64,000 nucleotides of DNA from Minisyncoccota bacterium (GCA_028711505.1 JAQTSC010000001.1:168604-232603); one strand, 5' to 3'; counted from the stretch's first letter, positions 11,566 through 53,057 are shown. Notes: generated from the sequence alone by a model not told the origin. Made by a program: numbers and translations.

Positions 11566-11568
11566 ATT

Positions 11569-20689: not shown

Positions 20690-20705
20690 CTCTCCCCTTT
20701 CTAAA

Positions 20706-36100: not shown

Positions 36101-36416
36101 CCTCCTTTTTCAATCCAAAATTTCTTTATCAAAAAAAACCGCCAGTTTTTATCTATTTAATCTATAACAAACTATATTAATTCTGTCAACTCCCGAATTA
36201 AAACCCTCGCAAACTTTTGAAATCATTTTGCCAAATCTGATACACAAATCCAAAAAACGGACAGAATTTTTGGCGGCGGATATCCAACTTGATTTATCCA
36301 ATCACGAATATACATTCCCACGCGTTCAATATGGTGATGTCTCAAAGAAGAGGCGCCCGCGAAATAAAGCCGTAACCGCACCTGCATTAGCAGACAAAGT
36401 CATTGTATTAAAGATT

Positions 36417-36464
36417 GGCATAAAAAAGAGCCCTCGGCGTTGCGAAAAAATCGCGCCGAAGGCT
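36417..36464 (-). terminator. Rho-independent terminator of the GC-rich gene
   Basis: GAGCCTTCGGCGCG...CGCCGAGGGCTC followed on the minus strand by TTTTTTAT. Confidence 0.5.
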
Positions 36465-36503
36465 CAAGGGTTAAAAAGGGGTAAACTCTCAAAATTACAA
36501 GGT

Positions 36504-37370: not shown

Positions 37371-37520
37371 AGCACACCTCCATTTTTTGATTTGTTCTCC
37401 ATATCCTTCAGAGATTTTAGAGAACGGGTTACCCTTTGCCGCAGGGTGACGGTCTCATCTCTCCTATGAGACGAGCGTTTTAGGAATCAAGATTTTGACA
37501 CCCAAAACGCCCATCTCATA
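37371..37520 (-). promoter_or_regulatory. Highly structured 5' leader (nested long inverted repeats) of the GC-rich gene
   Basis: Imperfect ~22-bp stem CTATGAGATGGGCGTTTTGGG / CCTAAAACGCTCGTCTCATAG, plus GGAGAGA...TCTCT with an inner ACCCT-GCGGCAA-AGGGT hairpin. Confidence 0.35.
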
Positions 37521-37630
37521 GACTGTCTGAATCTATTTTATTCTCATTTTCAAAGGATATCTCATCACAGCAATATATTTTAGGAAAGTCAAGCCAAAGA
37601 AAAAAGTGTCGCTATAAAAACAACAACCCG

Positions 37631-37846
37631 CTTGCGGGAGATCAAAGCGACATTTACAAAGCCGCTGGCATTGCCGCGCACGAGTTGGCTTACTTTTGTA
37701 AACAAATATACGAAGTTGCCGAATCAGATGACAGGCGCATGTTGTTCTCCCAGATTTTTACGAACCTTGTCCAAAATCGAAGTGGAATAAAAAAACACCA
37801 GCTTTCGTTGATGTTTATCCTTCTTGGCTCGCTTGGAAGGATATGA
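37631..37846 (+). pseudogene. Relic C-terminal fragment of a large serine recombinase
   Basis: Reads ...DQSDIYKAAGIAAHELAYFCKQIYEVAESDDRRMLFSQIFTNLVQNRSGI. This aligns with DEHQAAGIAVHELAFRSKEIYEVADDVDMKRLLLSQLFTNLLQNG in the intact recombinase at 50148..51725. No catalytic N-terminal domain is present. Confidence 0.55.
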
Positions 37847-38095
37847 TACGAACGCTGAAATGGGAAGAGATTTTCCCTTATCCCACAGTATCTTTACAGC
37901 AGATAAGGCAGTTGTTAGCTATCGTTCAATAAAATTGTATCACTTATAATAACAATTTAATAGTTTATTAAGCCAGGAGAAGAGGCACGATGTCTCTTCT
38001 TTTTGGTTTTAGGGTGGTGGTAGTTTCCCAGTGCCATTTTATTTTTTTGAGGGGGAAGCCCTGGGGTAATTTGTCTTTTTTGTCCGAAAACCTGT

Positions 38096-38170
38096 TGTAT
38101 GTACCAGTACGTACCATACCAGTACATACTAACGGCACATTATTTGCACATAGCCACTTCTACCACGTAC
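38096..38170. repeat. GTAC/ACGTAC-containing short direct repeats (iteron-like)
   Basis: gtaccagtacgtaccataccagtacatac ... ccacgtacac. A similar ACGTAC cluster occurs at 47083-47155. Confidence 0.3.
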
Positions 38171-38314
38171 ACACCCTGTCATCGTTTGAGACATTAACTT
38201 GTTTATGCTTGGAATAACAGATGATAGCAGGGTTATAGTGTGTTAAACAAAAAGGGTGTAACCATCTTTTTACCCGTCTCAATAGGTTAAAAATACCACT
38301 ACCTATAAGGGTAG

Positions 38315-38815
38315 CTATTTTACCTCTCTGCCCTTGGTGTGATTTTGGAACAAGATATAACCGATACTAAACACAATTAAAGAGGCGCCAAGTGGTGGGA
38401 ATAGATACAACACAAGGTTTAAGATGTTATACAAAAAAGATATTATAGCGTTCAATAGTTCGACAACCTTGGGAACAACCCAAAAGTACATAATTAGAAT
38501 CAAGAAGCCCCATATAAGCCCCTTTATACCTCGATAAAGCTGCCTGTCTCCCAAGCCTCTTACTATCAGATGGTATAAGAATTGATAAAATCTCACCCAA
38601 TATAAAAATGCGCCAAATGTTACAAATACCAAGGCGCTATACAATACTCGGTTAAAAAAACTCGGCGCCTCAATAGGGTTTATCGTAGCCCACTGAAATG
38701 TCTTACCAAGCCAGAAATGCCAGAGTAAAATTGCCAAAGCAAAAACGACAGCAAATGCCGCCGATGATGCAATTTCTTTTTTATTTTTTGCTATAACTTT
38801 TTTATACCAGCTCAT
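38315..38815 (-). CDS. 4-TM membrane protein, last gene of the hsdR-hsdMS-AAA_13 operon
   Basis: 166 aa with four hydrophobic helices. Start is 3 nt after the upstream stop. Confidence 0.55.
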   Translation of the reverse strand: MSWYKKVIAKNKKEIASSAAFAVVFALAILLWHFWLGKTFQWATINPIEAPSFFNRVLYSALVFVTFGAFLYWVRFYQFLYHLIVRGLGDRQLYRGIKGLIWGFLILIMYFWVVPKVVELLNAIISFLYNILNLVLYLFPPLGASLIVFSIGYILFQNHTKGREVK

Positions 38816-38818
38816 ATT

Positions 38819-41128
38819 TTATGGCGTCGTCGTTGTCGCGGGCGTGCAAAGAGCTTTTATGTCATCGTAGTGCTCTTTGTCTGCTAACTCAATAAACTTC
38901 AATACGTTTTTAGCAATAGATTTTCCTTCAAGCATAGCTGCGGAAATTGGTCTTGAAAAATCTTGTCCGTGAGAATACTCGTGTAAAAACTTAACTACAA
39001 AATCACCCGTGCCTTTTTTGAGATGATTTGGGTCTGCAACGAATCTATTAAGTACGATACTGGTAAAATCCTCGGTTGTTCTACAAGACCATTTGAAGCC
39101 AGAAAAAAACTCTAAAACCTTCCTTGCTATATTCGCCACGAGTGGTTCGTCCAATGGTCTTATATTATTTGCAAACTGATAAAGTCGGCAAAAGAGATAT
39201 TGATATTCGCTTTTATATTCTTTAAGAAGGTCTGGGAGATTTTCAACTTTAACTTCTTGGGTAGTGTTTTCTTTATCAAGGGAAATAAGATACATCCACG
39301 AATCATTTTCTAATTGCTTGCTTAAAAACCAATCGCGCATTAAATTAAAAAACTCGAAATTGTGTGTGAGTACAATCAGCTGCCCGACATTTTTTAGTTG
39401 TCTTTTTATCAAGCCCGCCGTGCGGAATAAAAAAATACTATCCTGACTATCAACTGGGTCATCAACGACAATCAAACAATTCTCTTTATTACACCCGTCT
39501 TCTTCAAGTTTTATTAAAAAGTAGACAAGAGCAAGCACGCCTTCTTCTCCTTCGCTCAAATGCTTGGCATCTTTATTTCTTCGTTTCAAAACATAGCTTG
39601 TATCACCATCCTCCGACTCTGTAACTTCAAGGTAGATATGGGATTCACCAAAAAACTCTTTTAGTATGGCATTGATTTTATCAACTGCATCTGTTGCATT
39701 ATGTAAAGATGCTTTTTTGCTTTGGATTTTAATAATCAAATCACCACGCTCAACTTTTAATTTAGCTATCTCTGCCGCAATACGCTCATTTTCTTTTTTG
39801 TTTTGGAAATACTGCTTATCAGATAAAATCGAGGCTATTATATGTAATTCAATTTTTTCTGCTGCGTTTTTAACTTCTTCTGATATTGTTGCTACTTTTT
39901 TGTTGTGTTCAGTTATTATACTTTTAATTTTTTCCAAACTTACATTTGCCTTGTCTATGGCGTCTTTTGGGTATATTACGGCGCTATGCTTTTTAGTGCA
40001 GTCGTGTAGATTGTCTTTTTTATTTTTAAGACAATCCGTGAGAGAGCCAATTACTTCTTTTATTTTTTTGACTTGTTCTTCGAGCTCCTTCTTCGCTGTT
40101 GTATATTCTTTTGCTGGTTCGGGGAACAAGGCACTTGATTCCAACTCTAACGCGATGCCGTTATAATCATCGTTTTCAAGAGAAATTATTGCATCCTCAA
40201 TTTGCTTCTTTGTTTTTTGAAGTTCGTCGGTAAAAAAACTTCCAAGACGAGTTAAGGTTTCTCCTGGCAAACTACTTTTGCAGAATTGACATTCGGTCAA
40301 AGCCCTATCTTTGTGTAGTTTATATCCAGTCTCAACCCAATCTCGTAAATCCTTATCATCTTTAAGCTCCTTGATTTCTTGTACGTTAATTGTGGTACAA
40401 AGTAGACCATTGGCACTACCAAAAAGCTCGGAAAAATCTGGAATCGTTGCTACGTTTAATTTAATTTCTTTCTTCTCATTTTTTATAATATCTTTCTTTG
40501 CGTCCACGTCTGCCTGGTCTGCAATAATCAATGAGGCGATACTACTTTCGCTTACTACTCCACTTTCAATACGCTTATCGACTTTATTTTTGTTATAGCT
40601 TCTACCATAGTATGTATCATTCGCCAGCGGTGTGTTGGTAAAGTTTTGAGGAACTTGTCTTCCTGCCTCCGTGAGAATAGCGTCAAGTTTAGGTAATTTT
40701 CCTTGCGCTTCCTCTAACTCCTCAATGCTTTTCTGCTTTGCCTTATAATCAATATCTAACGCTTCAATTTCTTTTTTGGTCTCAACATTTTCTTTTCCAA
40801 GTATTACGATTTTCTTCGCTTGCGATTCTTCGAACAGTAGGTTTTCTTTTATAAAATCTTCATTAAAAACCCTTACATTGAGTTCGTGATTCGCTATATT
40901 GTTCTGTTTTATTGTGCCAGCGTCTGTTTGAACTGTGAACTCAACAGAGGTTAAGTCTGGGATGTGTATTGCTTTTCTTTCCAAAAAATTAAAAAGTCTG
41001 GAAATGGTAGTCTTTCCAGAACCGTTCCAACCGTAAATAAGGTTGTGCTTTTTGAGGTCATCGCCAAGCCAATTGAAGGAATCAAAAGCGTCAACATTTT
41101 TTATTTCTTTGACTTTTTTTACTATCAT
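38819..41128 (-). CDS. AAA_13-family ABC-type ATPase with coiled-coil insertion and CxxC hook (PrrC/RloC-like; putative anticodon-nuclease-type abortive-infection protein)
   Basis: Walker A GWNGSGKTT near the N-terminus, ~300-aa coiled-coil containing CQFCKS, Walker B-like LIVVDDPVDSQD, C-terminal His-containing region. Directly downstream of the type I RM genes. Confidence 0.5.
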   Translation of the reverse strand: MIVKKVKEIKNVDAFDSFNWLGDDLKKHNLIYGWNGSGKTTISRLFNFLERKAIHIPDLTSVEFTVQTDAGTIKQNNIANHELNVRVFNEDFIKENLLFEESQAKKIVILGKENVETKKEIEALDIDYKAKQKSIEELEEAQGKLPKLDAILTEAGRQVPQNFTNTPLANDTYYGRSYNKNKVDKRIESGVVSESSIASLIIADQADVDAKKDIIKNEKKEIKLNVATIPDFSELFGSANGLLCTTINVQEIKELKDDKDLRDWVETGYKLHKDRALTECQFCKSSLPGETLTRLGSFFTDELQKTKKQIEDAIISLENDDYNGIALELESSALFPEPAKEYTTAKKELEEQVKKIKEVIGSLTDCLKNKKDNLHDCTKKHSAVIYPKDAIDKANVSLEKIKSIITEHNKKVATISEEVKNAAEKIELHIIASILSDKQYFQNKKENERIAAEIAKLKVERGDLIIKIQSKKASLHNATDAVDKINAILKEFFGESHIYLEVTESEDGDTSYVLKRRNKDAKHLSEGEEGVLALVYFLIKLEEDGCNKENCLIVVDDPVDSQDSIFLFRTAGLIKRQLKNVGQLIVLTHNFEFFNLMRDWFLSKQLENDSWMYLISLDKENTTQEVKVENLPDLLKEYKSEYQYLFCRLYQFANNIRPLDEPLVANIARKVLEFFSGFKWSCRTTEDFTSIVLNRFVADPNHLKKGTGDFVVKFLHEYSHGQDFSRPISAAMLEGKSIAKNVLKFIELADKEHYDDIKALCTPATTTTP

Positions 41129-41133
41129 AATGT

Positions 41134-43575
41134 TTATTCACCCCAAACTTCGGCGATTTTAGCCTTAATCTTTTCTTCGTATATTTCAATCATCCTTTTG
41201 GCTGATTCGACGTGTTTCGATTCATTTTCAATTTCAGAGACAATCTTTGTCTGTTCTTCAATCGGTGGTAGAAGTATTGAATAGTTTGAAACAAAATTGT
41301 TTGTTAATCTCTGCTGTCCAGCAGAGCCTGTCATATTATTTTTTCCCATCTTCAAAAACCTATCTTCCGCAATATAGTAATACAATAATTCGGGCAATAT
41401 CTTTTCTGTGGAGCGTAAAACAAAGAACTCTGTCGAACCAAATCCAATACCATTGGTGAGATTTTTTGCTATACCCGCTTTTCCGTTTTCAAAACACGGA
41501 GTAATTTTTGCAAGGAGAACATCATTATCCCTAAAATAAGTATAACTTTTTATCACGTCTTTGAGCGGTTTTGTTTCTTTCGGATAGAAAAACTTTTGAT
41601 GCTCTTCGATGTCTGCCATCGGCACAAATGATACTTGGGTAGTCCCGCTTATTTTTTTGACTTCTGATTTTGCTGGGTTTATTTCACAAACTTCTTTTAA
41701 GGAAACTTTTTTCCAATTTGGATTAACTTTTATTGATGATTTTGAGTGTTCAATAATTTGCTTTGCTCCATCTATAACTTTTTGATAGTTGTTAATTTCG
41801 CCGACTATTTCTCTTTGTACCTCAATCGGAGGTAGAGGGATTTTAATTTTTGAGTATTCAGAAATCCAATATCTTTTATGTTTATGACTTACAGAACCTA
41901 TCTTCTGCATTACATAAAACAAAAATCCTATATCTGCCACATTTTCCTTTGCGTGCAATATCTTCATCGCAGATGATTTAACCTTAAAAGGAAAATCAAC
42001 GAACTTTATCGCAGTAGTAAAATCATCAAAAATAATAACGGGCAATTTTTCTTTGAAGATACCGTCTTTTTCGTTGGTGTGTCCTAAAATAAAAGTTTTT
42101 CCAGCAGTTAATACTGGTGTTGTGTAGCTGTCATCATAATCAACAGAACGAACAATATACTTTGTGGGTTGTTCATAATCCAATATTTCACCCAGACTAA
42201 CCATTTGCCATTTAGTATTATTGTTACCAACCACGGCTCTATAATGGTCTCCTGACAGGTCGTAATTTTCGTTTTCAGCAATCTTTGTTTTAAGAGCTGT
42301 CCAAGCAAATAAACTACCTTTCTTCAATAGCGGATTTTTCTTTCCCGTTGTTATTGCATTTCGCTGTGCTTGTAATACTTCAATGGCGTGGGGCAAATCA
42401 TTTCGGTCAACTGGTCTACGTTGGGCGCCAAGGTCAAATCCATCGTTAAGTACTTTTATAAACAGAACTTCATTTGATTGTTTTGAAAGTTGATTGTCAA
42501 AAAATAAAATACTGGTTCTTACGCCAGAATATGGATTGAAAACTCCCGAAGGTAAAGAAACGACAGCGTACAAACCATCCTCAACAAGTAGTTTTCTTAA
42601 TTGTTTATAGGCTCCTGCTACTTGAAAAATAATAGCCTCTGGCACGATGATACCAGCACGTCCCTTATTATTGAGATGCTCCATAATATAATCTACGAAA
42701 AGCACTTCGGCGCGGTTAGCTTGTGCCATAAAGCGCTTGTGTGGGCGTATTCCGCCTTTGGGTGTCATAAAGGGTGGATTTGCCATCATTACGTCAAAGC
42801 GCTCGTCCCACTTCTCTTCGCTTGTTAGCGTGTCATATTCGTGGATATTTGGACTTGGGAAGCCGTGTAGATACAGATTTACAAGCGATAACTTCACCAT
42901 ATCGGGTGAAATATCATAGCCAGTAAGATTGCCCATTAAGCGTTTCTTTTCATCTGGGGTAAGCGGTTTATTCTTATTTGATTTAAGAATATGTTTGTAT
43001 GCAGAAATAAGAAATCCTGCCGTGCCACAAGCGGGGTCAAGTATTGTTTCGTCTTTCTTTGGGTCAACAACTTCAACGATAAAATCAATAATATGTCGCG
43101 GCGTTCTGAACTGTCCTGCGTCGCCCTGAGAGCCAAGGATTGAAAGTAAATACTCAAACGCATCACCAAGATTTTCACTGTGGTCGTAATTAAAAAAGTT
43201 TATATCTTTCAAAAATAGATTGAGAGTTTCTGGGTCGCGATATGGTAAAAAAGCATCTTTGAAAACATCACGAAAGAGTTGTGGAAGATGTGGATTTTTC
43301 GACATCTTTGTAATAGCTTCCACATAAAGATTCAAACGCTCCTGTCCGCCAAGTTTAGCATCCATCATTTTGCCCCAAGCATATTTTTCAAATCCATTCG
43401 TAAAAAACTGCGCCTTGCCCTTCGGTAAAGATGCAGCTCGCTTATCCATATCATCCATAAACTTATAGATAAGCGCTGTGGTGATTTGTTCCACTTGGGC
43501 TTTCGGGTCTGGGACTTTACCAACTAAAATATCCCGCGCCGAATCAATTTTCTTTTTTATATCTGTTGTTAGCAT
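41134..43575 (-). CDS. hsdMS: Type I restriction-modification N6-adenine methyltransferase fused to specificity subunit (HsdM-HsdS)
   Basis: HsdM N-terminus (QVEQITTALIYKFMDDMD), motif I LDPACGTAGFL, motif IV NPPF. About 370 C-terminal residues carry two TRD-like halves with conserved HsdS-type spacer helices. Confidence 0.8.
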   Translation of the reverse strand: MLTTDIKKKIDSARDILVGKVPDPKAQVEQITTALIYKFMDDMDKRAASLPKGKAQFFTNGFEKYAWGKMMDAKLGGQERLNLYVEAITKMSKNPHLPQLFRDVFKDAFLPYRDPETLNLFLKDINFFNYDHSENLGDAFEYLLSILGSQGDAGQFRTPRHIIDFIVEVVDPKKDETILDPACGTAGFLISAYKHILKSNKNKPLTPDEKKRLMGNLTGYDISPDMVKLSLVNLYLHGFPSPNIHEYDTLTSEEKWDERFDVMMANPPFMTPKGGIRPHKRFMAQANRAEVLFVDYIMEHLNNKGRAGIIVPEAIIFQVAGAYKQLRKLLVEDGLYAVVSLPSGVFNPYSGVRTSILFFDNQLSKQSNEVLFIKVLNDGFDLGAQRRPVDRNDLPHAIEVLQAQRNAITTGKKNPLLKKGSLFAWTALKTKIAENENYDLSGDHYRAVVGNNNTKWQMVSLGEILDYEQPTKYIVRSVDYDDSYTTPVLTAGKTFILGHTNEKDGIFKEKLPVIIFDDFTTAIKFVDFPFKVKSSAMKILHAKENVADIGFLFYVMQKIGSVSHKHKRYWISEYSKIKIPLPPIEVQREIVGEINNYQKVIDGAKQIIEHSKSSIKVNPNWKKVSLKEVCEINPAKSEVKKISGTTQVSFVPMADIEEHQKFFYPKETKPLKDVIKSYTYFRDNDVLLAKITPCFENGKAGIAKNLTNGIGFGSTEFFVLRSTEKILPELLYYYIAEDRFLKMGKNNMTGSAGQQRLTNNFVSNYSILLPPIEEQTKIVSEIENESKHVESAKRMIEIYEEKIKAKIAEVWGE

Positions 43576-43577
43576 AA

Positions 43578-46094
43578 TTACATATAGGCGTTAAGCGAAA
43601 CATAATCCTTCACATATTCTGGCACTTTCTCAATCCAACCATTTAAGGCTTCAAGGTCTGCAAAAGTTAGTTTTGGATTGGTGGCGAGCCGCGCATATTC
43701 ACCCTTTTCGATAATGTCTCGTATTTCATTATCGGTTATGTATGCCTTCAAGTAATTTTTAATCGGCATTACGAATTGATTTTCTGGCTTATTGATAGCA
43801 ACGAACTTCTCAAACTCTCCCTCCAATAATTCGTCTTTTGATTTGAAGTTAGTGATACCACCGAAGATTTTTTCTATAAACTCGCGCAAGCTGATGCGTC
43901 GGTCAGACTTCACTGATTTACGTAATTTGTCCAGATTGAAGAAATCTTCTGGCTTATCAAAAATCTTGTCTTTTACATAATCTTCAATCGTCGCCAAATC
44001 TCCTTCATCATATTTTTGTTTAATAAAGGAGTCTTCTTTTATTGCTGCCTCAAACTTTTCGAATAGCTTGCGGTCAATCTTCATCCCTTCAACACCCACC
44101 GCTTTTTCAGTAAATGTTTTTAATGGGTCTGGCTGCGTAATTGAAATCTCGTCAATGTTTATTCCGCCTTCTCCACTTTCACCGCCAGTGCCAGTTTTAG
44201 CAGGTAAATGTAAAACCTCATCGTAATCATACTTTTCTTCAAAGTATTCGCAGTTAGCAAAGAAATCAAAGAGCTTAAACTTTTCTTTTGATACTTTTGC
44301 TTCCTGTATTTTGCCACCTTCTTTTTCTTGGTGGGTAAATGTGAACTTGCGCGTGCCACGTCCCTTAATCTGAATAAAATCAGTCGGAGAAAATATCGGG
44401 CGCATCAAGGCAACGTTGAGTATATCTTGGCAATCATAACCAGTTGTCATCATCCCAACTGTTACACAAAGACGCGTCTTGCTGGAATGATAGCCGTCCA
44501 AAAACTTTGTATAGCCATTAAGATTGTTGTTAGCAAAACTCACCGTAAAATCTTGGGCACTTGGAATATTTGAAGTAACCTGTACGGCAAAATCAGAATT
44601 ATATTTGCCTGGATAAAGTTGGTCGGCAAACTGATTAAGTATTTGTGTAACTTTGGATGCGTGTTTTTGACTAACACAAAAAACAATACCCTTACCAATT
44701 TCTCCCGTTATTGGGTCTTTAAGAGCATTTTCAAAAAATGTTTTGCAAAAAATCTGATTGGTTTTATCGGAGAAGAACTTGCGTTCAAAATCAGTATGGA
44801 AAAAAGTCTGTTCTTCTTCCTTACCGTTTTCATCTTCAACCATCATCGCATAGCCCTTTTCAGAAAGAAGCTCGGTTGTTATTTCGGTACGCGCATCAGC
44901 AACAACTGGGTTTATTAAATAGCCTTCCTTAACGCCATCAAGCAAGGTGTATCGAAATGTTGGCTCGCCAGTTTCGCAGCCAAAAGTTTTGTAGGTATCA
45001 AAAAGTTGGCGGCGCTCCCAAGCGCGCGGGTCTTTGGTGTTGAGTTTTTCAGGGTTGATTCCTTTGAGATAATTTTTAGGAGTTGCAGTAAGTCCGAGTT
45101 TATAGCCAACAAAATACTCAAATACTGCACGACTATTGCCGCCGATTGAACGATGGGCTTCATCGGAAATTATGAGGTCAAAATCCGTAGGAGAGAATAA
45201 TTTTTGATACTTATTATTAAAGGAAAGACTTTGCACAGTGGAAACAACAATCTCTGCCTTGCGCCAGTCATCTTTGTTTTCTTTATAAACAACGGTTGTA
45301 TAATCCTTTGAAAGCCACTTCTTGAAGTTCTTGGCTGCCTGGTCTTCCAATTCCAAACGGTCAACAAGAAATAAAATACGCTTGGCATTTCCGCTTTTTA
45401 GGAAAAGTTTAATGATAGCCGCTGATACAAGAGTTTTACCCGTGCCTGTCGCCATCTCAAACAAATAACGGTCATTGCCTTTGGCGGCGGATTCTTGAAG
45501 AGATTTGATGGCGTGTAATTGATATGGGCGCAAAAACTTTAATCCTTCCGTGTCAATAAGATTCTGTTGCTGCTCTTCGTTCTCCCAGCGTGGGTCGCTC
45601 TTATAATCTGTCTTCTGGGTAAGTACTATGTAATCATTTTCTACATCCTCATCGGCAAGACGCTTGGAATTAGGTTTGAATTGTTCAAAATGTTGAAGTG
45701 ATTGTGGTGTTGGAAATTGGACAATGATTGTAGGGTTGCCGCGCTCCAAGTCCCAGAAATAGTGAAGGTTACCGTTAGAAAGAATAACAAAACGTACATT
45801 TAGGGACTGGGCATAGCTGCGCGCTTGTTCTTTGCCGTCAAGCGGGTCTTTGTCTTCGGACTTCGCTTCAAGCACTACATACGGGAATCCTTTTTCATCA
45901 AGTAATAAAAAATCAACAAAACCATTTTTTGTTTTTTCGAAATCACCACCAAAAGCATCGACTGCTTTTTTAGTAAGTTTAGTGTTAAGTTCAAGGGCGA
46001 TGTTAGCCTTGCCTTTTTCATCATCAAAAAATCTCCAACCAGACTTTTGGAGGAGGTCGTTTATTTTTATTCGTGATTTAGCTTCTTTTTGCAT
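43578..46094 (-). CDS. hsdR: Type I restriction enzyme R subunit (PD-(D/E)xK nuclease + SF2 helicase)
   Basis: N-terminal VDFLLLDEKGFPYVVLEAKS (D...EAK), Walker A MATGTGKT, DEAH (LIISDEAHRS), motif VI QIKGRGTR. Confidence 0.8.
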   Translation of the reverse strand: MQKEAKSRIKINDLLQKSGWRFFDDEKGKANIALELNTKLTKKAVDAFGGDFEKTKNGFVDFLLLDEKGFPYVVLEAKSEDKDPLDGKEQARSYAQSLNVRFVILSNGNLHYFWDLERGNPTIIVQFPTPQSLQHFEQFKPNSKRLADEDVENDYIVLTQKTDYKSDPRWENEEQQQNLIDTEGLKFLRPYQLHAIKSLQESAAKGNDRYLFEMATGTGKTLVSAAIIKLFLKSGNAKRILFLVDRLELEDQAAKNFKKWLSKDYTTVVYKENKDDWRKAEIVVSTVQSLSFNNKYQKLFSPTDFDLIISDEAHRSIGGNSRAVFEYFVGYKLGLTATPKNYLKGINPEKLNTKDPRAWERRQLFDTYKTFGCETGEPTFRYTLLDGVKEGYLINPVVADARTEITTELLSEKGYAMMVEDENGKEEEQTFFHTDFERKFFSDKTNQIFCKTFFENALKDPITGEIGKGIVFCVSQKHASKVTQILNQFADQLYPGKYNSDFAVQVTSNIPSAQDFTVSFANNNLNGYTKFLDGYHSSKTRLCVTVGMMTTGYDCQDILNVALMRPIFSPTDFIQIKGRGTRKFTFTHQEKEGGKIQEAKVSKEKFKLFDFFANCEYFEEKYDYDEVLHLPAKTGTGGESGEGGINIDEISITQPDPLKTFTEKAVGVEGMKIDRKLFEKFEAAIKEDSFIKQKYDEGDLATIEDYVKDKIFDKPEDFFNLDKLRKSVKSDRRISLREFIEKIFGGITNFKSKDELLEGEFEKFVAINKPENQFVMPIKNYLKAYITDNEIRDIIEKGEYARLATNPKLTFADLEALNGWIEKVPEYVKDYVSLNAYM

Positions 46095-46129
46095 AATACA
46101 TTTTCATTTTCATATTTACAGAGAAACGG

Positions 46130-46318
46130 TTATCTCTTTTTCTTTTTTGCCTTAAAACTGTTCTCGACGAACTCTTCAAGGTCTTCTTTTCTAAAACGCC
46201 AACGTCCAATTTTTGCAGCTTTAATTTTACCGCTATGCAGATAGCGGAATAGTGTGCGCTTGCCAATATCAAGAAACTTGGCGGCTTCTTCTATATTCAA
46301 AAACTTCTCTTGTTCCAT
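46130..46318 (-). CDS. Excisionase/MerR-type HTH DNA-binding protein
   Basis: 62 aa; LNIEEAAKFLDIGKRTLFRYLHSGKIKAAKIGRWRFRKEDLEEF. Confidence 0.65.
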   Translation of the reverse strand: MEQEKFLNIEEAAKFLDIGKRTLFRYLHSGKIKAAKIGRWRFRKEDLEEFVENSFKAKKKKR

Positions 46319-46392
46319 ACAAACATATTGTATCCCTTTTTGCTCGAAATGGCAATTATTGGCATTTCTTGATATAATGGCTTTAAGACACT

Positions 46393-47067
46393 ATGGAAAT
46401 GAAAATGACAACAAAAGAAAAGGATATTTTATTTGCTCAAATTATCAATGAGCACTTTTTAACGCAAAAAAATAATACGGTCTATATACCAGCAAGACAT
46501 CTCGAAGCGAAGGGTTTTGATATTTCTGATAGTAATAATGCCTTGTGGCGCCTAAAAGATAATGGGATTATTAAACAATATAAACATTGCTGGGGCTTTT
46601 GGGAGATTAAAGGCAGTAAGAAGGTTTTTGTTATTACGAGCGAAGAGGAACCCAAAACAGATGATGACGTTGAGGTTTATCAGATTAACGTTATTCCTGG
46701 ACACCTTGTGCAAGCAACAAAAAGCCAAATAGAAAAACAAGAAGAAAAAAATGTTACTCTCTACCTCAACAAAAATGGTGATTTGTACAGAGAGCCGAAA
46801 AGCAATTTTTGTTATCCGATGAGCGGTAAGGGTGTTCCATTAAAAATACTCAAATACTTCGTAGATAACCCAAATATTGATTATGAACAAAATACAATAA
46901 ACGCCGCCGACTCTATCGGTATAAAAGCAGACCAATTACGTAAAGAAATAAACAAGATGAGAAAACCCATCAAAGACAGACTAAAACTGAATAGTGGGCT
47001 AATTGAAGCAAGAAGGAATAGCGGTTATAGGCTTAATCCAAATATAGAAATAATACACAAAAACTAA
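46393..47067 (+). CDS. Hypothetical protein (possible element regulator or replication factor)
   Basis: Divergent from the Xis-like gene. TTGATATAAT promoter-like sequence lies upstream. A terminator follows. Confidence 0.5.
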   Translation: MEMKMTTKEKDILFAQIINEHFLTQKNNTVYIPARHLEAKGFDISDSNNALWRLKDNGIIKQYKHCWGFWEIKGSKKVFVITSEEEPKTDDDVEVYQINVIPGHLVQATKSQIEKQEEKNVTLYLNKNGDLYREPKSNFCYPMSGKGVPLKILKYFVDNPNIDYEQNTINAADSIGIKADQLRKEINKMRKPIKDRLKLNSGLIEARRNSGYRLNPNIEIIHKN

Positions 47068-47106
47068 ATACCCTCACGTACCCCATACGTACTGTTAATT
47101 ACTTTT

Positions 47107-47140
47107 AAGACGACTGCTAAAACAGTCGTCTTTTTGTATC
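47107..47140 (+). terminator. Rho-independent terminator
   Basis: AAGACGACTG-ctaaaa-CAGTCGTCTT followed by TTTGTATC. Confidence 0.55.
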
Positions 47141-47449
47141 TCAAAAAGTACGTGCAGATTATGTTAAGCGATAACACGTCGTTGATATTCTGTAAGTATA
47201 TGAAAAATGCAGATACAAAAATTGCAATTAGCGACTTGGGACTTGCGAGCTTACTGGTAACGCTCAACTTTAATTTGGTCGATATGGAGCGCGTGAACGA
47301 AAAGCGCATCAACTTTTTATTTGCGCCAGCAGAAGGAATAGAGCAAGTCATCAGTGATTTTTGGGCAGGCATTAAAATCTCTGTTTCTACACAGAGCCTT
47401 TTTAATAATCAAAAGATGCTCAAAAACCGCTTGTACGCTTTCAAATAAT

Positions 47450-47614
47450 ATGGAGCTTACTGCGGAACAATTACAAATGCTTCGAAAGCCTTTTGAAAAA
47501 GCAGGGGCATTTGTTGGTCGTTCCGAAGAAGAAATTAAAAAACTTCTTGAAGGCATTGCAGATATTTACGTAACCCTTGCAGAAATAAACTTACTTTCAA
47601 AAAATAAAAAATAA
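47450..47614 (+). CDS. Small hypothetical protein (54 aa) immediately upstream of the primase
   Basis: ATG at 47450. It is 4 nt before the Prim-Pol start. Confidence 0.3.
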   Translation: MELTAEQLQMLRKPFEKAGAFVGRSEEEIKKLLEGIADIYVTLAEINLLSKNKK

Positions 47615-47618
47615 AACT

Positions 47619-49352
47619 ATGGAAAATGAAAATCAAATCTTAAAAGCTGCGTTGCGATATTGCGATATGGGATTCTCTATAATTCCAATCGGGGAAAATA
47701 AACGTCCGCTTCTTGCCGAATGGAAACCGTATCAAGAAGTGTGCGCAACAAAGGAACAAGTAGAAAAATGGTTTGAACAATTCCCGCAAGCGAATATAGG
47801 AATCATAACGGGCAAAGTGTCCAATATTGTTGTCATAGATGTTGATGATAAAGATGCAGACATATCAGGGCTAATACCAACAGCTATTGCACAAACTGGT
47901 AGAGGCTTCCACTATTATTATTCACATCCTGGCTTTCCTGTTCATTGCGGCATATTGCGTACCAAGATTGATATTAAGGGAGATGGCGGTTATGTAATTG
48001 CTCCGCCCTCATTGCACGCATCTGGACGTCATTATGAATGGGTTTATCATCCCGATGATGTTGGGTTTGCTGATTTACCGCAATGGGTTTTTAGAGAAAA
48101 CGGAAAACAAAAAATCAATCAAATAGAAAATAATCCTCAAACTGAAAATAAAGTATACGAAGGACATCGAAATGATAGTGCTACGAGATTTGCTGGAAAG
48201 CTATTGCACGCACTACCACGCGAAGACTGGGAGTTTGGATGGTCTGTAATACAAAAATGGAATCAAGAGCGATGTGTGCCGCCGCTTCCAGAAAGTGAGC
48301 TGCGAAAAACTTTTGATAGTATTTCTGGACGTGAAAACAAAAGACAAGATGGAAAGGGCGCTACCGAATGGGAAATAAAAACTATGCAACTTTCGGAACT
48401 TGTTAAAATGGATTTTCCAAATCCACAATGGCTCGTAGATAGATTGATTCCGCACGAGGCTGTTACCATCATCTCTGGTACGCCAGCATCTTATAAAACT
48501 TTCCTTACTCTGGACATTGCATTAAAGGTAGCAAGCGGAGAAAAAGTTTTCGGTAATTTCCAGGCTACCCAAAGTCCAGTTTTAATTATTGATGAAGAAA
48601 ATAATCCACGCGTATTACAAGAACGAGTCAAATTACTTTCACAGAATCCCGACTTGCCAATTTTTATAGCATCAAGAAACGGTTTTCAACTTAACGACGA
48701 CAATGTTCAAAAAATTGTTGATTATGCCAAAAGTAAAAATGTACAACTAATTATATTTGACTCTTTTATTTGCATACACCAAGCCGATGAAAATGTGGCA
48801 AGTGAAATGCGTAATGTGATGAAACACTTGAAAGAGATTGCCAGCCACGGCATCGCGGTTATTGTTATTCATCATCACCGCAAAAGAGGAAATGCGGAAA
48901 AAGGAAATGCCTCGCAGGATATGCGCGGCTCTTCCGATATTCTGGCGCAGGTTGATTGTCATTTGGCGATTGATAGAAAAAAGAGCGGAGACGCCAGCGT
49001 TACTATCCAGCAGGTCAAGTTAAGAGAAGCCAAAGAGATGGAGCCATTTGTTGTTTGCCTTCATAGTAATGGCGAGAGTGGATATTTTGAATATGTTGGG
49101 CAAGCCAAAGAAAAAAATGATAAGCAAGGAGATGTTAAAGCAGCTGTAATTAAAATACTTGGCGCAACAGACAAGCCACTAAATAAGGCAGAGGTATGGA
49201 GACTTATCAAACAGTCTGGTGTTGAGGTGGGACAGTCAACATACAAAACAGCCTTTAAGGAATTGGTTGAGACTGGCGAGATACTCACACAGAAAGGGGC
49301 TAAAAATACCATACTTTGCAGTCTGAATAAGTTAGAGGGTGGTGATGGTTAA
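47619..49352 (+). CDS. Bifunctional DNA primase/polymerase (Prim-Pol N-terminal domain) fused to a RecA-like/AAA_25 helicase-type ATPase domain
   Basis: Prim-Pol motifs GFSIIPIG..KRPL, VVIDVD, GRGFHYYY, DIKGDGGYVIAPPSLH. C-terminal Walker A GTPASYKT and Walker B LIIFDSF. Confidence 0.8.
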   Translation: MENENQILKAALRYCDMGFSIIPIGENKRPLLAEWKPYQEVCATKEQVEKWFEQFPQANIGIITGKVSNIVVIDVDDKDADISGLIPTAIAQTGRGFHYYYSHPGFPVHCGILRTKIDIKGDGGYVIAPPSLHASGRHYEWVYHPDDVGFADLPQWVFRENGKQKINQIENNPQTENKVYEGHRNDSATRFAGKLLHALPREDWEFGWSVIQKWNQERCVPPLPESELRKTFDSISGRENKRQDGKGATEWEIKTMQLSELVKMDFPNPQWLVDRLIPHEAVTIISGTPASYKTFLTLDIALKVASGEKVFGNFQATQSPVLIIDEENNPRVLQERVKLLSQNPDLPIFIASRNGFQLNDDNVQKIVDYAKSKNVQLIIFDSFICIHQADENVASEMRNVMKHLKEIASHGIAVIVIHHHRKRGNAEKGNASQDMRGSSDILAQVDCHLAIDRKKSGDASVTIQQVKLREAKEMEPFVVCLHSNGESGYFEYVGQAKEKNDKQGDVKAAVIKILGATDKPLNKAEVWRLIKQSGVEVGQSTYKTAFKELVETGEILTQKGAKNTILCSLNKLEGGDG

Positions 49353-49432
49353 AAACACTACTATATAGTGTCAGATTTTTTTAACCAACTTAAAGGTCGA
49401 AATAATTAAACAATAATTAAACATAAAAAAAT

Positions 49433-49603
49433 ATGGAAGAAGAGCTTTATATCAATGTTCCTCGCCCGTTGCTACAAGACGCAGCCAAAGAAGACTTCGG
49501 GAGATTATTAACCGATGATGAACTCGTGGAGGTAGGAAGTCTGGTCGTAGAAGCGGCTATGGCAGCAATCCAAGAGAGTATTAAACAGGTTGTTGAAAAA
49601 TAA
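49433..49603 (+). CDS. Small acidic hypothetical protein (56 aa)
   Basis: Clean ATG..TAA ORF. Confidence 0.3.
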   Translation: MEEELYINVPRPLLQDAAKEDFGRLLTDDELVEVGSLVVEAAMAAIQESIKQVVEK

Positions 49604-49649
49604 CATCTTGCCAATTCTTGCCACTATGATATACTAACTATGACGCCTA

Positions 49650-49825
49650 CATTTCATAATAGCCATTTTGCTACGTTGTAGCTTTTAGTTCCCAGAAAGG
49701 GGTTCATCCTCTTACTGCCACTAAAAGCTACGCAAGTGGTTTGAAATGTGGGCGTCCAGTAAGATGTGGTGAGCCCCTTTTTGGGTATTTGGGGACACCG
49801 CACAGGTGCCCTTTTTTCTTTTTCC
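49650..49825 (+). ncRNA. Candidate structured small RNA (promoter-to-terminator unit)
   Basis: TTGCCA-N16-TATACT promoter-like sequence at 49617-49644. Long stem GTAGCTTTTAGT...ACTAAAAGCTAC. Ends with a GGGACACC-gcaca-GGTGCCC hairpin plus TTTTTTCTTTTT terminator. Confidence 0.3.
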
Positions 49826-49895
49826 CATTGAGTGCTTCGAGCACTAACGAGCGCCAAGAGTGTCTGGGAGAAAGAAAAAAGGACGCCTTAATAAA

Positions 49896-50126
49896 ATGAA
49901 TATGAACTACCAAAAACAATTAAGTGTTAGCGAACTAATAATGTGGTCGATTTACTTTTTGTTTTTCTTTTCCATTTTTACCGCAATCAGTACTGGAATA
50001 ATGCAATGGCTTTTCGAGATAAAAACATTATCTTTAATAGTCGGAATAACTTGTGGAATCGTGGGCTGCTATTTGGTAAGAAACTTACCGCACAAAATGA
50101 AAGTAAATGACCGCGGCGGATTATAA
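49896..50126 (+). CDS. Small 2-TM membrane protein
   Basis: MNMNYQ start. Two hydrophobic helices. Confidence 0.35.
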   Translation: MNMNYQKQLSVSELIMWSIYFLFFFSIFTAISTGIMQWLFEIKTLSLIVGITCGIVGCYLVRNLPHKMKVNDRGGL

Positions 50127-50147
50127 ACTAACTTCACTTACAAAAAT

Positions 50148-51725
50148 ATGACCAATAACATTTCATCAAAAATAAAAGCAATGGTTTTCTGCCGCGTCTC
50201 TTCCAAAGAACAAGAAGACACGGGCTACTCGTTGGACTCGCAAGAAAAACTTTTGACCGAGTATGCGAAAAAATACGATTACAAAATTGTAAAAGTCTAC
50301 CGCATATCTGAATCAGCCAGCGGCAAACAGGTGCGCAAAACTTTTATTGAGGCTTTGCAATTTGCCACAAAAAATAAAATAGAAATTATTTTGTGTGAAA
50401 AAATTGACCGCCTTACTCGCAACTTAAAAGATGCCGCCACAATAGATGACTGGGTAAAGGAAGACACGGCGCGCGCAGTTCATTTCGTCAAAGAAAACTT
50501 TATCTTGAACCAACAGACGAAGGCTCACGATAATTTTATTTGGGATATGAAAGTTGCTGTTGCCAGATTTTATACCAACAATCTTTCCGAAGAAGTTAAG
50601 AAAGGACAAATAGAAAAAATAGCCCAAGGTTGGCTACCAACAAAACCGCCGCTCGGATATAAAACTATCGGCGACAAAGGACACAAGACGCACGTCATTG
50701 ATGAAGAAGTGGCGCCTTTTATGCGCAAGATGTTTGAATGGTACGCTACGGGCAATTATTCAGTTGCGCGCGTGGAAAAGGAATTGTTTGAGGCTGGGCT
50801 GCGCACACGTTCGGGTAAAAAGCTGGGAATGAGTCGAATCCATATGATGCTACAAGACCCGTTCTATTACGGCAAGATGCGCTGGATGGGAAAAGTATTT
50901 GCTGGTATGCACAAGCCGCTTATAGAAAAAGATGTGTTTGATAAAGTACAAGGATTACTGCGCCGAAAAACAAACTCACCTCATCTTCGAAAACACAACC
51001 CACTTTTTAAGAGCAAAATCTTCTGCGAAAATTGCGGCGGGATGATGACTTGGTATGAGAAGAAAGGACACTGGTATGGGCACTGTAACAACCACGGAGA
51101 GTACGCCAGGTGCACTAAAAAGACCTGTATGAGGCAGGAAGCCATAGAAGAACAGATAACCACCGTCTTTGACGTCATAGCCCCTCAAAATGAGGAGGTG
51201 CTTGCAGCGATAGTTCAAATCCTTAAAGACAAACACAAGGATATGACCGCCAACCGCGAGAATGATATTAAAAGGTATAATTCGCTCCTGGCTAATGTCC
51301 AGACACAGAAAGACAGACTCTACGAAGCCAAGCTAAATAAGGAGGTGCCAGTTGAGTACGTAGAGCGCAAGCTGGCTGAATTAACCACCGAAGCAGAGAC
51401 TTTGGAAAATACCCTGGTTTCTGTGAGAGACAAGAGCGATGAGCACCAAGCGGCAGGCATTGCCGTACACGAGCTGGCGTTTCGTTCAAAGGAGATTTAC
51501 GAGGTAGCTGATGACGTTGATATGAAGAGATTGCTTTTGTCTCAATTATTTACGAACTTGCTACAAAATGGGCTTGAAATAAAGAAAGAATACACATCCG
51601 CCGCTAAATTATTGATAGAATGGGTGCCAAAGCTAAACAAGGATTACGAACTGCAAAAAAGTGAGCAGATAAAAGGAAAAGACGTCGTTTTGTCGACGTC
51701 TTCTCCTGTCTGGCTCCGGTGGTAG
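50148..51725 (+). CDS. Large serine recombinase (resolvase catalytic domain + recombinase domain + Zn ribbon + coiled-coil)
   Basis: Catalytic AMVFCRVSSKEQ (Ser nucleophile), IDRLTRN, Cys cluster CENCGG...CNNHGEYARCTKKTC. The last 5 codons overlap the tRNA-Asn 3' end. Confidence 0.85.
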   Translation: MTNNISSKIKAMVFCRVSSKEQEDTGYSLDSQEKLLTEYAKKYDYKIVKVYRISESASGKQVRKTFIEALQFATKNKIEIILCEKIDRLTRNLKDAATIDDWVKEDTARAVHFVKENFILNQQTKAHDNFIWDMKVAVARFYTNNLSEEVKKGQIEKIAQGWLPTKPPLGYKTIGDKGHKTHVIDEEVAPFMRKMFEWYATGNYSVARVEKELFEAGLRTRSGKKLGMSRIHMMLQDPFYYGKMRWMGKVFAGMHKPLIEKDVFDKVQGLLRRKTNSPHLRKHNPLFKSKIFCENCGGMMTWYEKKGHWYGHCNNHGEYARCTKKTCMRQEAIEEQITTVFDVIAPQNEEVLAAIVQILKDKHKDMTANRENDIKRYNSLLANVQTQKDRLYEAKLNKEVPVEYVERKLAELTTEAETLENTLVSVRDKSDEHQAAGIAVHELAFRSKEIYEVADDVDMKRLLLSQLFTNLLQNGLEIKKEYTSAAKLLIEWVPKLNKDYELQKSEQIKGKDVVLSTSSPVWLRW

Positions 51726-51785
51726 GATTCGAACCTACAACCAACTCCTTAACAGGGAGCTGCGCTACCGTTGCGCTACACCGGA
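51711..51785 (-). tRNA. tRNA-Asn (anticodon GTT)
   Basis: 75 nt cloverleaf. Acceptor TCCGGTG/CACCGGA, D-arm GCGC-AACGGTA-GCGC, anticodon loop CTGTTAA, T-arm GTAGG-TTCGAAT-CCTAC, discriminator G, encoded CCA. Confidence 0.85.
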
Positions 51786-51818: not shown

Positions 51819-53057
51819 CTAATACCCTTCAAGCCTCCGCAATTTATCGTGTTGGCGGATTTTTTCAATCGCTTTGGCTTCAATCTGACGTATTCGCTCG
51901 CGGGTAACCCCAAATTCTTTTCCCACTTCTTCAAGCGTGTGAGTGATGCCGTCGGCAAGTCCGAAACGCATCTCCAAAATTTTCTGTTCTCTCGGCGCCA
52001 AATCAATCAAAATTTCTTTAAGCTGGTCTTTAAGCAATCTGCGCGCCGCCTGTTGGTCTGGCGACAGAATTTTTTCATCTTCAATAAATTCACCGAGCGT
52101 TGAATCGTCTTCGTCGTCTCCGACCGGCGCTTCAAGTGAAATCGTTTCCTGGGAAATCTTCTGCATGTGGCGAATTTTTTCCACCTCAACTCCCATCTCC
52201 GCCGCTATTTCTTCGGCGAGGGGATCTCTTCCCAGATCCTGAGTAAGCCGGCGGAAAACTTGCTGATATTTTGAAATCGTTTCAACCATATGAACGGGAA
52301 TGCGAATCGTTCTCGCCTGATCCGCCAAGGCGCGCGTTATCGCCTGTCTCACCCACCAAGTAGCGTATGTGGAAAATTTAAAACCTTTTCTCCAGTCAAA
52401 TTTTTCAACGGCGCGGAAAAGTCCGAGGTTTCCTTCCTGTATCAAATCCAAAATAGTAAGGTTCGGAGTGCGATTTATGTATTTTTTGGCGATGGAAACA
52501 ACCAAACGCAAATTAGCCTGCGCTAATTTCTTTTTCGCTTCGTCATCTCCCTGCTCAATGAGCTTTGCCAATTCTTTTTCTTCCTGCGCGGTGATAAGCG
52601 GAATTTTTCCTATCTCTTTCAGATACATCTGGACAGAGTCCGACAACCCGCCGCCTTCTTCAAGAAGTCTGGCTTTCCCTTTTTTGCGAGGAACGGCGTC
52701 GGTTTCCAAAAGATCGCTTCCTTCCAATACATCTATTCCCTGCTCTTCGCATTTAACGTAAAGATGGTCAAGAAAAACAATGTCGTTTTCTATATCAGGG
52801 AAAGCTTTAAGTATCTCGTTATGAGTTATGAACCCCCGTGTTTTGCCTTTCGCTAAAAGAATCTCTATTTTTTGTTCGTTTGTTATTTTCCCTTTCTTCT
52901 GCAAGGGTTCTTTAACAATTACCGCTTTCTCCGGCTTTATGCCGGCTTTTTTAGAAATTTTTTCCGATTTCTTGACTAAAGATTTTCCCTGAGATTTTCC
53001 GGAAGATTTAGGTGAAAGATGTTTTTGAGATTTGGCTTTTGCGAGTTTTTTGGGCAT
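51819..53057 (-). CDS. rpoD: RNA polymerase sigma-70 factor
   Basis: Regions 1.2-4. [23 protein letters not shown], and the region 4.2 HTH ([20 protein letters not shown]). Confidence 0.9.

Follow-up and report, generated by a model that had tools for sequence, protein, structure and literature searches.

Large serine recombinases (LSRs) of phages and integrative and conjugative elements (ICEs), such as those of phiC31, Bxb1, A118/LI and TP901-1, are treated in the literature as avoiding transfer RNA (tRNA) genes and as having the attachment site of the mobile element (attP) outside their own gene (PMC4383910, PMC7192596). The use of tRNA 3′ ends as targets of serine integrases has been regarded as unknown or unproven (PMC4383910), and the 14 of 297 predicted serine-integrase cases at tRNA genes were accompanied by the remark that ‘experimental proof will be required’ (PMC7192596). 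Here we describe an integrative element in a 64,000-nucleotide (nt) stretch of DNA from a Minisyncoccota bacterium (GCA_028711505.1 JAQTSC010000001.1:168604-232603), hereafter ‘the window’, in which positions are counted from the first letter. Its recombinase belongs to an LSR family of more than 2400 homologues that appears to break both rules, by targeting tRNA genes (42 of 80 sampled loci) and by carrying attP within its own gene.

The window LSR resembles the phage and ICE enzymes in having the same Resolvase, Recombinase and zinc-ribbon domains and a long coiled coil and, like theirs, its attachment (att) sites share few base pairs (bp) at the crossover. It differs from them in targeting tRNA genes at their 3′ ends, in that attP would lie inside the recombinase open reading frame (ORF) such that integration alters the C-terminus, and in an extra C-terminal helical extension that ends in a tail of 33 amino acids (aa). 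Several tyrosine-recombinase systems offer closer parallels for the gene arrangement. With the SSV-type (‘suicidal’, type I) integrases of archaeal viruses and plasmids, the element shares an attP within the integrase ORF, a tRNA target and an integrase gene whose two parts come to lie at either end of the element. An SSV-type integrase gene can be restored or made hybrid by tandem integration, and this type is described as ‘so far restricted to archaea’ (PMC7253208); a comparable hybrid gene is present in L177, one of the contigs related to the window (loci and homologous proteins are designated by L and P handles). However, the SSV-type enzymes are tyrosine recombinases whose genes are split in the middle to leave two inactive pseudogenes, whereas the present gene encodes a serine recombinase that loses only the last 33 of 556 codons and keeps all of its recognisable domains.

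The integration target of phage Mx8 overlaps tRNA-Asp genes. An attP inside the integrase gene is ascribed to Mx8 IntP in a 1996 work cited in PMC4383910. Mx8 IntP/IntX belongs to the tyrosine integrases, comes from a tailed Myxococcus phage and represents a single system, whereas a large LSR family is involved here. In mycobacteriophage BPs and its relatives, attP resides in a coding gene whose C-terminus and function depend on the integration state (PMC4557955), but it is a repressor gene that is split and the integrase is a tyrosine enzyme, whereas here the recombinase itself is split. The closest ecological analogue is the tycheposons of Prochlorococcus, 910 of 937 of which use tyrosine recombinases and a minority an LSR (10.1101/2020.12.28.424599). 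Both kinds of element are small islands at tRNA genes with a site-specific integrase, primase/helicase genes and exchangeable cargo, although we saw no report of a split recombinase gene in tycheposons (10.1101/2020.12.28.424599) and their hosts belong to another phylum. The open-access literature yielded nothing substantive that links Patescibacteria with serine recombinases, nor a serine integrase with attP within its gene, and in the same literature we found no earlier description of an island with split-integrase architecture for the LSR enzyme class.

The window protein is a bona fide LSR as judged by its domains, invariant residues and fold. Pfam recognizes the Resolvase (PF00239, E=1e-22), Recombinase (PF07508, E=5.5e-15) and zinc-ribbon (PF13408, E=3.3e-6) domains, and every invariant residue of the family is retained. 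These include R16-V17-S18 and the zinc-ribbon cysteines C293, C296 and C322, with C313 nearly invariant, across 49 family members. The AlphaFold2 model of the homologue P0068 has long helices at residues 346-450 and a confidently folded last helix in the tail, and the top Foldseek matches, at 12-17% identity, are serine-integrase/att complexes determined by cryo-electron microscopy (E=6.5e-17), Bxb1, PhiC31 and A118. A protein database contains 2402 homologues at E<=1e-10, of which the 120 best were used to compare C-termini, and a metagenome sample of 80 loci was fetched with an LSR profile.

A preliminary description of the locus, made from the sequence alone, had proposed an integrative element at tRNA-Asn(GTT) with a 525-aa serine recombinase gene that ends inside the tRNA gene and overlaps it by 15 nt. 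ARAGORN and Rfam place the tRNA exactly as this requires, and the LSR stop codon, TAG at 51723-51725, falls within the 3′ strand of the acceptor stem, so that the two convergent genes share 15 nt. Codons 1-523 of the LSR come from the element, whereas its last two codons and stop (RW and stop, 51717-51725) are antisense tRNA sequence. We consider it very probable that the element has integrated at the extreme 3′ end of tRNA-Asn(GTT) by means of its own LSR.

The boundaries and the crossover core of the element are given by comparison with related sequences. The element spans 37831-51716 (~13.9 kb), with TGGCTC at both flanks. On the left, window 37823-38270 is 85% identical to L081 825-1272, and this homology starts abruptly at CTTGGCTCG, to the left of which the L081 sequence is unrelated to the window. 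On the right, nucleotide homology with L177/L178 runs at 94% over 46104-49639 and 50142-51716 and ends exactly at 51716, the final base of TGGCTC. L177/L178 is the closest relative, and its LSR (P0121) falls in the same 90% cluster as that of the window. Contigs L081-L091, whose LSRs are 86-92% identical to the window LSR, have the backbone in common but differ in cargo and flanks; the neighbouring sequence is rpoD in the window, acetate kinase/XFP in L081 and another element in L177. The proposed integrative element is thus borne out by a backbone that recurs elsewhere at 85-94% nucleotide identity with other flanks and cargo, and by homology that breaks at TGGCTC.

A search with blastn-short and a repeat search detected no direct repeat of the tRNA 3′ end of at least 9-10 nt at the left border, and the borders were therefore set only by comparison with related elements. 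The Islander definition of a tRNA-gene island calls for an intact tRNA gene at one end with an integrase gene beside it, a displaced tRNA fragment at the other end and an integrase of the tyrosine family. Here the intact tRNA and the adjoining integrase gene are present. What could be taken for a tRNA fragment at the left border is the 6-bp core only, followed by a coding P′ arm that resembles a tRNA (14 of 19 positions agree by eye), and the sole recombinase is a serine enzyme. To the right of the core, the bases of the acceptor stem co-vary with the host 5′ strand, and at most 6 nt of the tRNA (GAGCCA) can derive from the element. Reconstitution of the tRNA 3′ end by the element, as first proposed, is accordingly limited to these few nucleotides; the rest is host tRNA, and the main contribution of the element seems to be a new terminator (see below).

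Convergence of the LSR gene on a tRNA 3′ end recurs in the family far above chance. The LSR stop codon lies inside an antisense tRNA gene in 42 of the 80 metagenome loci, and the integrated ORF is intact in all 42. Most of these tRNAs are Asn-GTT (26 loci), followed by Gln (7), Ser, Tyr and Asp (2 each) and Leu, Lys and Glu (1 each). Among the other loci, eight have a longer C-terminus, nine run off the contig end and 21 were left unassigned, several of which read antisense T-arm-like peptides (e.g. ..DSNQ..). Three rpoD loci from GTDB carry an LSR ~30% identical to that of the window. In L028 (Nealsonbacteria) and L066 (Vogelbacteria) it converges on tRNA-Asn with the same 15-nt overlap, and in L060 it also converges on tRNA-Asn, with a frame that appears to extend further into the tRNA.

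Because the tRNA always adjoins the LSR and is the sole tRNA found by ARAGORN in the window, it might instead be carried by the element as cargo and not be its chromosomal target. This possibility seems to us vanishingly small. The 94% homology with L177 ends at 51716, before the tRNA body, and the L081 tRNA has a host-specific compensatory acceptor stem (TCCGGAG/CTCCGGA versus TCCGGTG/CACCGGA) as well as a group I intron. Moreover, rpoD is followed by tRNA-Asn without an LSR in L037, L017 and L019, and members of the family sit at nine different tRNAs.

The intron of L081 deserves separate mention. At 11605-12185 (minus strand) of this contig, the tRNA-Asn beside the 92%-identical LSR is split at anticodon position 35/36 by a group I intron (Rfam RF00028, 89.9 bits), with intact exons, and ARAGORN calls no tRNA in L081-L091 because of it. 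Introns at position 35/36 in the tRNA-Asn of Patescibacteria have already been described (PMC13011429). The end of homology between the window and L081 had pointed to a crossover at 51751, within the anticodon loop; this candidate was rejected since it corresponds to the intron insertion site of L081. A group I intron in a tRNA can therefore imitate an att breakpoint.

The second departure from known LSRs concerns the recombinase gene. As part of the same explanation, which we regard as highly likely, attP would lie within codons W522-L523 of a 556-aa gene, and integration would exchange the last 33 codons for RW and a stop. These 33 codons (AWKDM...AIVQ and stop) are found at the far left end of the element, where the sequence reads, in frame from the TGGCTC core, WL followed by AWKDMIRTLKWEEIFPYPTVSLQQIRQLLAIVQ and a stop. 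Only in the circular (attP) form would the tail continue the LSR reading frame from ..WL. It matches the contiguous tail of the long-form homologue P0068 in 24 of 35 residues and has the same stop position. P0068 is encoded in L095 after a Prim-Pol gene, with cargo on the opposite strand, and L095 is colinear with the predicted attP junction: its positions 5076-5212 correspond to window 51525-51661 and 5264-5370 to window 37827-37933, and the stretch CTCGCTTGGAAGGAT is identical in the two. The left end of L081 has the same tail ORF with conservative and synonymous changes and a stop codon nine codons upstream, which argues that the tail is not an independent gene.

Sequence comparison across the family establishes both the split gene and the generality of this architecture. 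Long forms of ~551-557 aa account for 19 of the 120 homologues and end in the tail LAW(K/R)D.LRT..W...FP.P.VSL.QI..LL, whereas most of the others read antisense into a tRNA, with short-form C-termini such as ..WLRW, ..LLRG and ..WLPDLDSNQD. A hidden Markov model (HMM) of the tail detects intact detached tails on the same strand as the LSR, 5-10.6 kb upstream of it, at tRNA genes for Asn (L103/L104, L125/L126, L130, L140, L158 and L159), Gln (L099 and L114), Lys (L113), Tyr (L115) and Asp (L145), and also in L133, L149 and L153. In all, the detached tails that are intact and stop at the family position number 19. Paired attL and attR sites share only 4-9 nt, located at the junction: (T/G)GCTC for Asn, TTGTGCGC for Lys and CTTGTGC for Tyr. 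The identity of each tail to the window tail follows that of the LSR body, from 85% where the body is 92% identical down to 30-39% at 46%, as would be expected of two parts of one protein under common selection.

An alternative reading arises from an LSR-like relic immediately to the left of the element (discussed below), whose last frame continues into the tail (..KKTPAFVDVYPSWLAWKDM..IVQ and stop) as though the two formed one C-terminus. Relic and tail could then represent a single decayed long-form LSR pseudogene (37640-37932), in which case the element would actually start rightward of 37933, with an unsplit resident LSR. There is very little chance that this is correct. L081 contains 37823-38270 at 85% identity, including the tail ORF, but upstream of it has unrelated host sequence and nothing LSR-like. 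No relic accompanies the intact detached tail in at least 15 further integrated elements, and in L095 the LSR 3′ end and the tail are contiguous. In addition, the window tail is 85% identical to that of L081, whose LSR is 92% identical to the resident enzyme, whereas the relic body is nearer to other lineages.

A split LSR gene that is joined in a circular form and divided by integration into a tRNA leads to specific predictions. The attP junction is predicted to read ...CCTGTCTGGCTC / GCTTGGAAGGAT... (longer form ...GTCGACGTCTTCTCCTGTCTGGCTC / GCTTGGAAGGATATGATACGAACG...), and the attB junction before entry ...ATCCTTCTTGGCTC / CGGTGGTAGG... (longer form ...GTTGATGTTTATCCTTCTTGGCTC / CGGTGGTAGGATTCGAACC...). 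For L081 (JGI 3300028581) the predicted attB is ...CCCGAACACGACTCGGCTC / CGGAGGTAGGG....

Several observations weigh against this interpretation. Neither for this element nor for a near-identical one did we observe an excised circle, an attP junction or an empty attB. Terminal overlaps were absent from all 12 complete small contigs, and no related contig can be shown to be circular. Comparison with related contigs, which the preliminary description had recommended for locating the att sites, delivered attL and attR but no empty attB: none was alignable by synteny among the closest genomes, which have at most 75% RpoD identity and share hardly any gene order in the flanks. No tail was detected at the left ends of the closest relatives, L087 and L177, and a detached tail is present in only 9 of the 17 integrated loci with at least 9 kb of upstream sequence; elements at the loci with no detected tail may exceed the 10-kb flank in length. 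Large chromosomal contigs (L092-L094, L096 and L109) likewise contain long-form LSRs, and a contiguous tail alone is therefore no proof of an extrachromosomal state; the tandem array of L177 is one case of a chromosomal contiguous tail. Finally, standard LSR rules leave unexplained the attP x attR or attP x attL recombination that tandem insertion needs.

The long form had been considered as a general marker of the free circle, and was rejected in this role as several examples lie in chromosomal contigs of 150-508 kb. These members (L092-L094 and L109, with P0051; L096, with P0077) are embedded in larger islands whose neighbouring genes encode TrwB-like coupling proteins, ArdC, an OLD-family nuclease and a ComM (Mg_chelatase_C) fragment, and the neighbours in L096 are Bacteroidota-like (IS66, CHU_C). 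Such contexts indicate that the family is not restricted to the candidate phyla radiation (CPR) or to tRNA targets. The 647-kb contig L153 has two tails side by side (554-655 and 1180-1263), an LSR with a degenerate contiguous tail (10001-11650) and, ~9 kb downstream, a second LSR only 26% identical (20191-21450), and resembles an array of several elements or what remains of multiple insertions.

The failure to find a circular form or empty site, the RpoD identity of 75% or less to the closest genomes and the removal of 33 aa from the enzyme on integration would all suit a fixed fossil, that is, an element that was integrated by its LSR but no longer excises, and whose truncated LSR is inactive or domesticated in the manner of the ‘suicidal’ SSV-type integrases. 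We think this unlikely. Every backbone gene of the window copy is intact, as is the detached tail, and the backbone is 94% identical in nucleotides to L177 and 85-90% to L081, with other cargo and flanks; this combination implies that the lineage has been mobile recently. Selection through the joined form is required to keep the tails intact, as they are throughout the family. The 525-aa isoform also retains the catalytic, recombinase, zinc-ribbon and coiled-coil parts.

If the element is instead still mobile, as we favour, the following sequence of events can be proposed. In the circular form, the LSR gene would encode a 556-aa protein with the 33-aa tail and would have its own terminator, for which the hairpin at 37975-38003 is the likely candidate. 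Upon integration, the tail would move to the opposite end of the element and the ORF at attR would be completed by the antisense tRNA codons RW and stop. We infer the existence of the circular form from this arrangement, and suppose that the tail matters for integration or directionality and that the truncated isoform, with or without a directionality factor, carries out excision. A more tentative idea, to which we give somewhat less than even chances, is that integration acts as a switch in a large family borne mostly by Patescibacteria: the free circle would produce the tailed isoform and the integrated copy the tail-less one, and the two would differ in directionality or activity. If true, the isoforms would be integration-competent versus excision-competent or quiescent, and the element would possess a built-in, state-dependent control that replaces or supplements a separate directionality factor. 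The family offers a natural experiment on the extreme C-terminus of serine integrases that is relevant to LSR-based genome-engineering tools, for which a family with a universally conserved tRNA end as attB could be useful.

Contigs L017 and L019 end at tRNA-Asn, and L112, L119, L130, L136, L148 and L151 end 110-114 nt past the LSR stop codon. Repeated assembly breaks at or just past the tRNA fit strain heterogeneity, with sites that are occupied, empty or differently occupied. The element family would explain such recurrent breaks, together with annotations of recombinases that read into tRNAs, in metagenome-assembled genomes (MAGs) of CPR bacteria.

Integration also affects the tRNA gene. 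Its sequence would be kept, but its own terminator is predicted to be replaced by a new intrinsic terminator that is dual-coded in the C-terminal codons of the LSR gene, where a hairpin of 14 pairs with a T run follows the tRNA directly. In 38 of 45 non-redundant integrated loci (L098-L173 range), the 45 nt located 3′ of the tRNA fold strongly, and the mean fold energy of these segments is -15.3 kcal/mol, compared with -6.1 for a control taken 90 nt further inward. A conserved peptide near the LSR C-terminus (e.g. KGKDVVLSTSSP / KGKEVVFATSSP) is encoded by a palindrome that is also the predicted opposite-strand terminator. Conservation of the C-terminal peptide may thus partly reflect constraint at the DNA or RNA level.

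The relic at the left border had been reported as a fragment ~50% identical to the recombinase C-terminus over ~45 aa, devoid of a catalytic domain and consistent with an older, decayed element at the same site. The similarity survives statistical alignment: in a tblastn search of the LSR against the whole window, aa 428-496 match 37640-37843 with 49% identity at E=1.8e-13, and the next match has E=0.46. The length, however, is 69 aa and not ~45. The relic corresponds to approximately aa 428-480 followed by the final ~13 aa, ending in ‘..SWL’, has no catalytic domain, and is disrupted by an internal deletion of ~33 codons and a frameshift at an A-run (37784-37793). Its first frame reads ..AAGIAAHELAYFCKQIYEVAESDDRRMLFSQIFTNLVQNRSGIKK, and its second frame, past the A-run and the deletion, reads KKTPAFVDVYPSWL. 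The latter is the extreme C-terminal motif of the family and reaches exactly to the left junction, after which the present tail begins.

Both parts of the relic fit other members of the family better than the resident LSR. The first part is 72% identical to P0004 over 54 aa and 70% identical to P0003, versus 60% for the resident LSR, and the second part is 77% identical over 13 aa to the C-termini of P0010/P0011/P0079 and has no match in the resident LSR. This better fit, together with its position against attL, indicates that the relic is the stump of a different, presumably older element that was inserted in tandem, which agrees with the origin first proposed. On these sequence grounds, the junction is a hybrid in which the P arm of another family member meets, at the core, the P′ arm of the present element. 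The presumably older element would once have lain in tandem to the left, with all but the end of its LSR gene since deleted. An undecayed tandem array with the same hybrid junction is provided by L177, the 35,333-bp contig Ga0416707_000731, in which an intact LSR, 94% identical in nucleotides to that of the window, is fused after ..SSPIWL to a tail of another subtype, ALLNDFRHFDYATEYKYPTVVLDQMKGLLAKYENL. This tail belongs to the following element, which carries its own type I restriction-modification (R-M) cargo.

The features of the element are collected in Table 1.

Table 1. Locations of the element, its parts and its target tRNA gene in the window (positions from the first letter)
Feature	Position	Strand	Evidence and remarks
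Relic, C-terminal stump of a different LSR (element E1)	37640-37830	+	Outer (B-side) arm of attL; tblastn E=1.8e-13
attL crossover core TGGCTC	37825-37830	+	Same as attR core; L081 homology onset at 37823; attL/attR comparison
Detached LSR 3′ end (P′ arm), AWKDMIRTLKWEEIFPYPTVSLQQIRQLLAIVQ and stop	37831-37932	+	Tail HMM E=5.8e-19
Conserved non-coding left-end region	37933-38270	.	85-90% identical to L081 though cargo differs completely
Terminator-like hairpin and T run	37975-38003	+	42 nt past tail stop; conserved in L081
Cargo (defence) operon	38315-46094	-	Pfam and PADLOC
166-aa protein, no assigned family	38315-38815	-	
AAA_13/PDC-S06 protein	38819-41128	-	PADLOC PDLC04894 E=1.2e-140, full length
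Fused HsdM-HsdS, one 813-aa ORF	41134-43575	-	PADLOC MTase_I 1.2e-97, Specificity_I 8e-64
HsdR-like	43578-46094	-	Pfam, PADLOC REase_I 4.4e-55
HTH_17 (AlpA/Xis-like), 62 aa	46130-46318	-	Pfam E=1.4e-17; present in 18 related loci
Backbone genes	46393-47614	+	224-aa protein 46393-47067, DUF5659 within 47134-47448, small ORF
Prim-Pol + PriCT_1 + AAA_25/DnaB-like helicase	47619-49352	+	Pfam, PHROGs; 94% nt identity to L177
LSR, integrated (truncated) isoform, 525 aa	50148-51725	+	Resolvase, Recombinase, Zn_ribbon_recom domains
Predicted intrinsic-terminator hairpin, 14 pairs and T run	51674-51707	-	Inside LSR C-terminal coding region (P arm), directly 3′ of tRNA
attR crossover core TGGCTC	51711-51716	+	= GAGCCA, tRNA 3′ end on minus strand; L177 homology end
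tRNA-Asn(GTT), target gene, intact	51711-51785	-	ARAGORN; Rfam 72.4 bits

The host is a Paceibacteria-like CPR bacterium. The best relatives of the adjoining rpoD gene product (51819-53057, minus strand) have 60-75% identity and all come from MAGs of Patescibacteria/CPR, and P0122 (MDD5032704.1), which looks identical to the window LSR, is annotated as Candidatus Pacebacteria/Paceibacterota bacterium. Searches for exact matches to the RpoD and LSR proteins of the window gave no record. The reported gene content, consisting of a Prim-Pol/helicase, an Xis-like helix-turn-helix protein and a defence operon with no virion genes, was recovered with Pfam, PADLOC and PHROGs, and the view of the element as a plasmid-like defence island stands. 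A type I R-M system is encoded in one operon, with HsdR (ResIII/helicase and HSDR_N), HsdM (N6_Mtase) and HsdS (Methylase_S) recognized by Pfam. The AAA_13 ATPase matches the profiles of the PADLOC candidate system PDC-S06, the defence function of which is itself only a candidate, and the R-M system shares the cargo slot with a PDC-S06 gene pair. Other cargo occupies the corresponding slot (38270-46104) in L081 and L177, and the slot between the non-coding left-end region and the HTH_17 gene is exchangeable. The HTH_17 protein is a conserved backbone gene product and a candidate regulator or directionality factor. Patescibacteria thereby gain defined mobile elements with base-pair boundaries and an exchangeable slot for defence cargo.

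The Prim-Pol/helicase presumably serves as a replication module by which the element is copied, and the element is probably a self-replicating integrative defence island. The non-coding left-end region, which holds GTACCAGTAC/GTACCATACCAGTAC repeats and folds better than shuffled sequences (z=-2.46), may serve the Prim-Pol helicase as a replication origin, or may contain a promoter or a regulatory RNA. An integrase, Prim-Pol/helicase, small helix-turn-helix genes and cargo at a tRNA, with no virion genes, also match satellites and tycheposons (10.1101/2020.12.28.424599), and the element could thus be a phage satellite or other helper-dependent element, similar to a phage-inducible chromosomal island or a tycheposon, that spreads in helper-phage capsids. 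We put this at perhaps one chance in a handful, since Pfam and PHROGs revealed no packaging, capsid or small-terminase genes and a scan of IMG/VR viral contigs with the LSR gave no match.

Between the Prim-Pol and LSR genes, the intergenic stretch 49608-49897 is 85.5% identical to L081 and includes an inverted repeat with 24-nt arms (49804-49827 / 49865-49888). This is probably the feature listed in the preliminary description as a candidate small RNA, for which Rfam gave no match.

To the left of the relic, the region 36000-37600 has a GC content of 46-49%, compared with ~40%, and holds a 288-aa ORF (36504-37370) with no match in Pfam, NCBIfam, PHROGs, PADLOC or any fetched locus. It may be residual cargo of the older element. 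A sequence of ~68 nt at 36190-36257 is present there as a solo copy beside the GC-rich ORF and is ~97% identical to two inverted copies in L103, at 1758-1825 (plus strand) and 5026-5093 (minus strand). The L103 copies are located just outside attL and bracket a 3.3-kb cassette that encodes a C5 DNA methylase, a 486-aa protein and an HTH_3 controller. The bracketed unit may represent a further type of mobile cassette at this tRNA-Asn hotspot.

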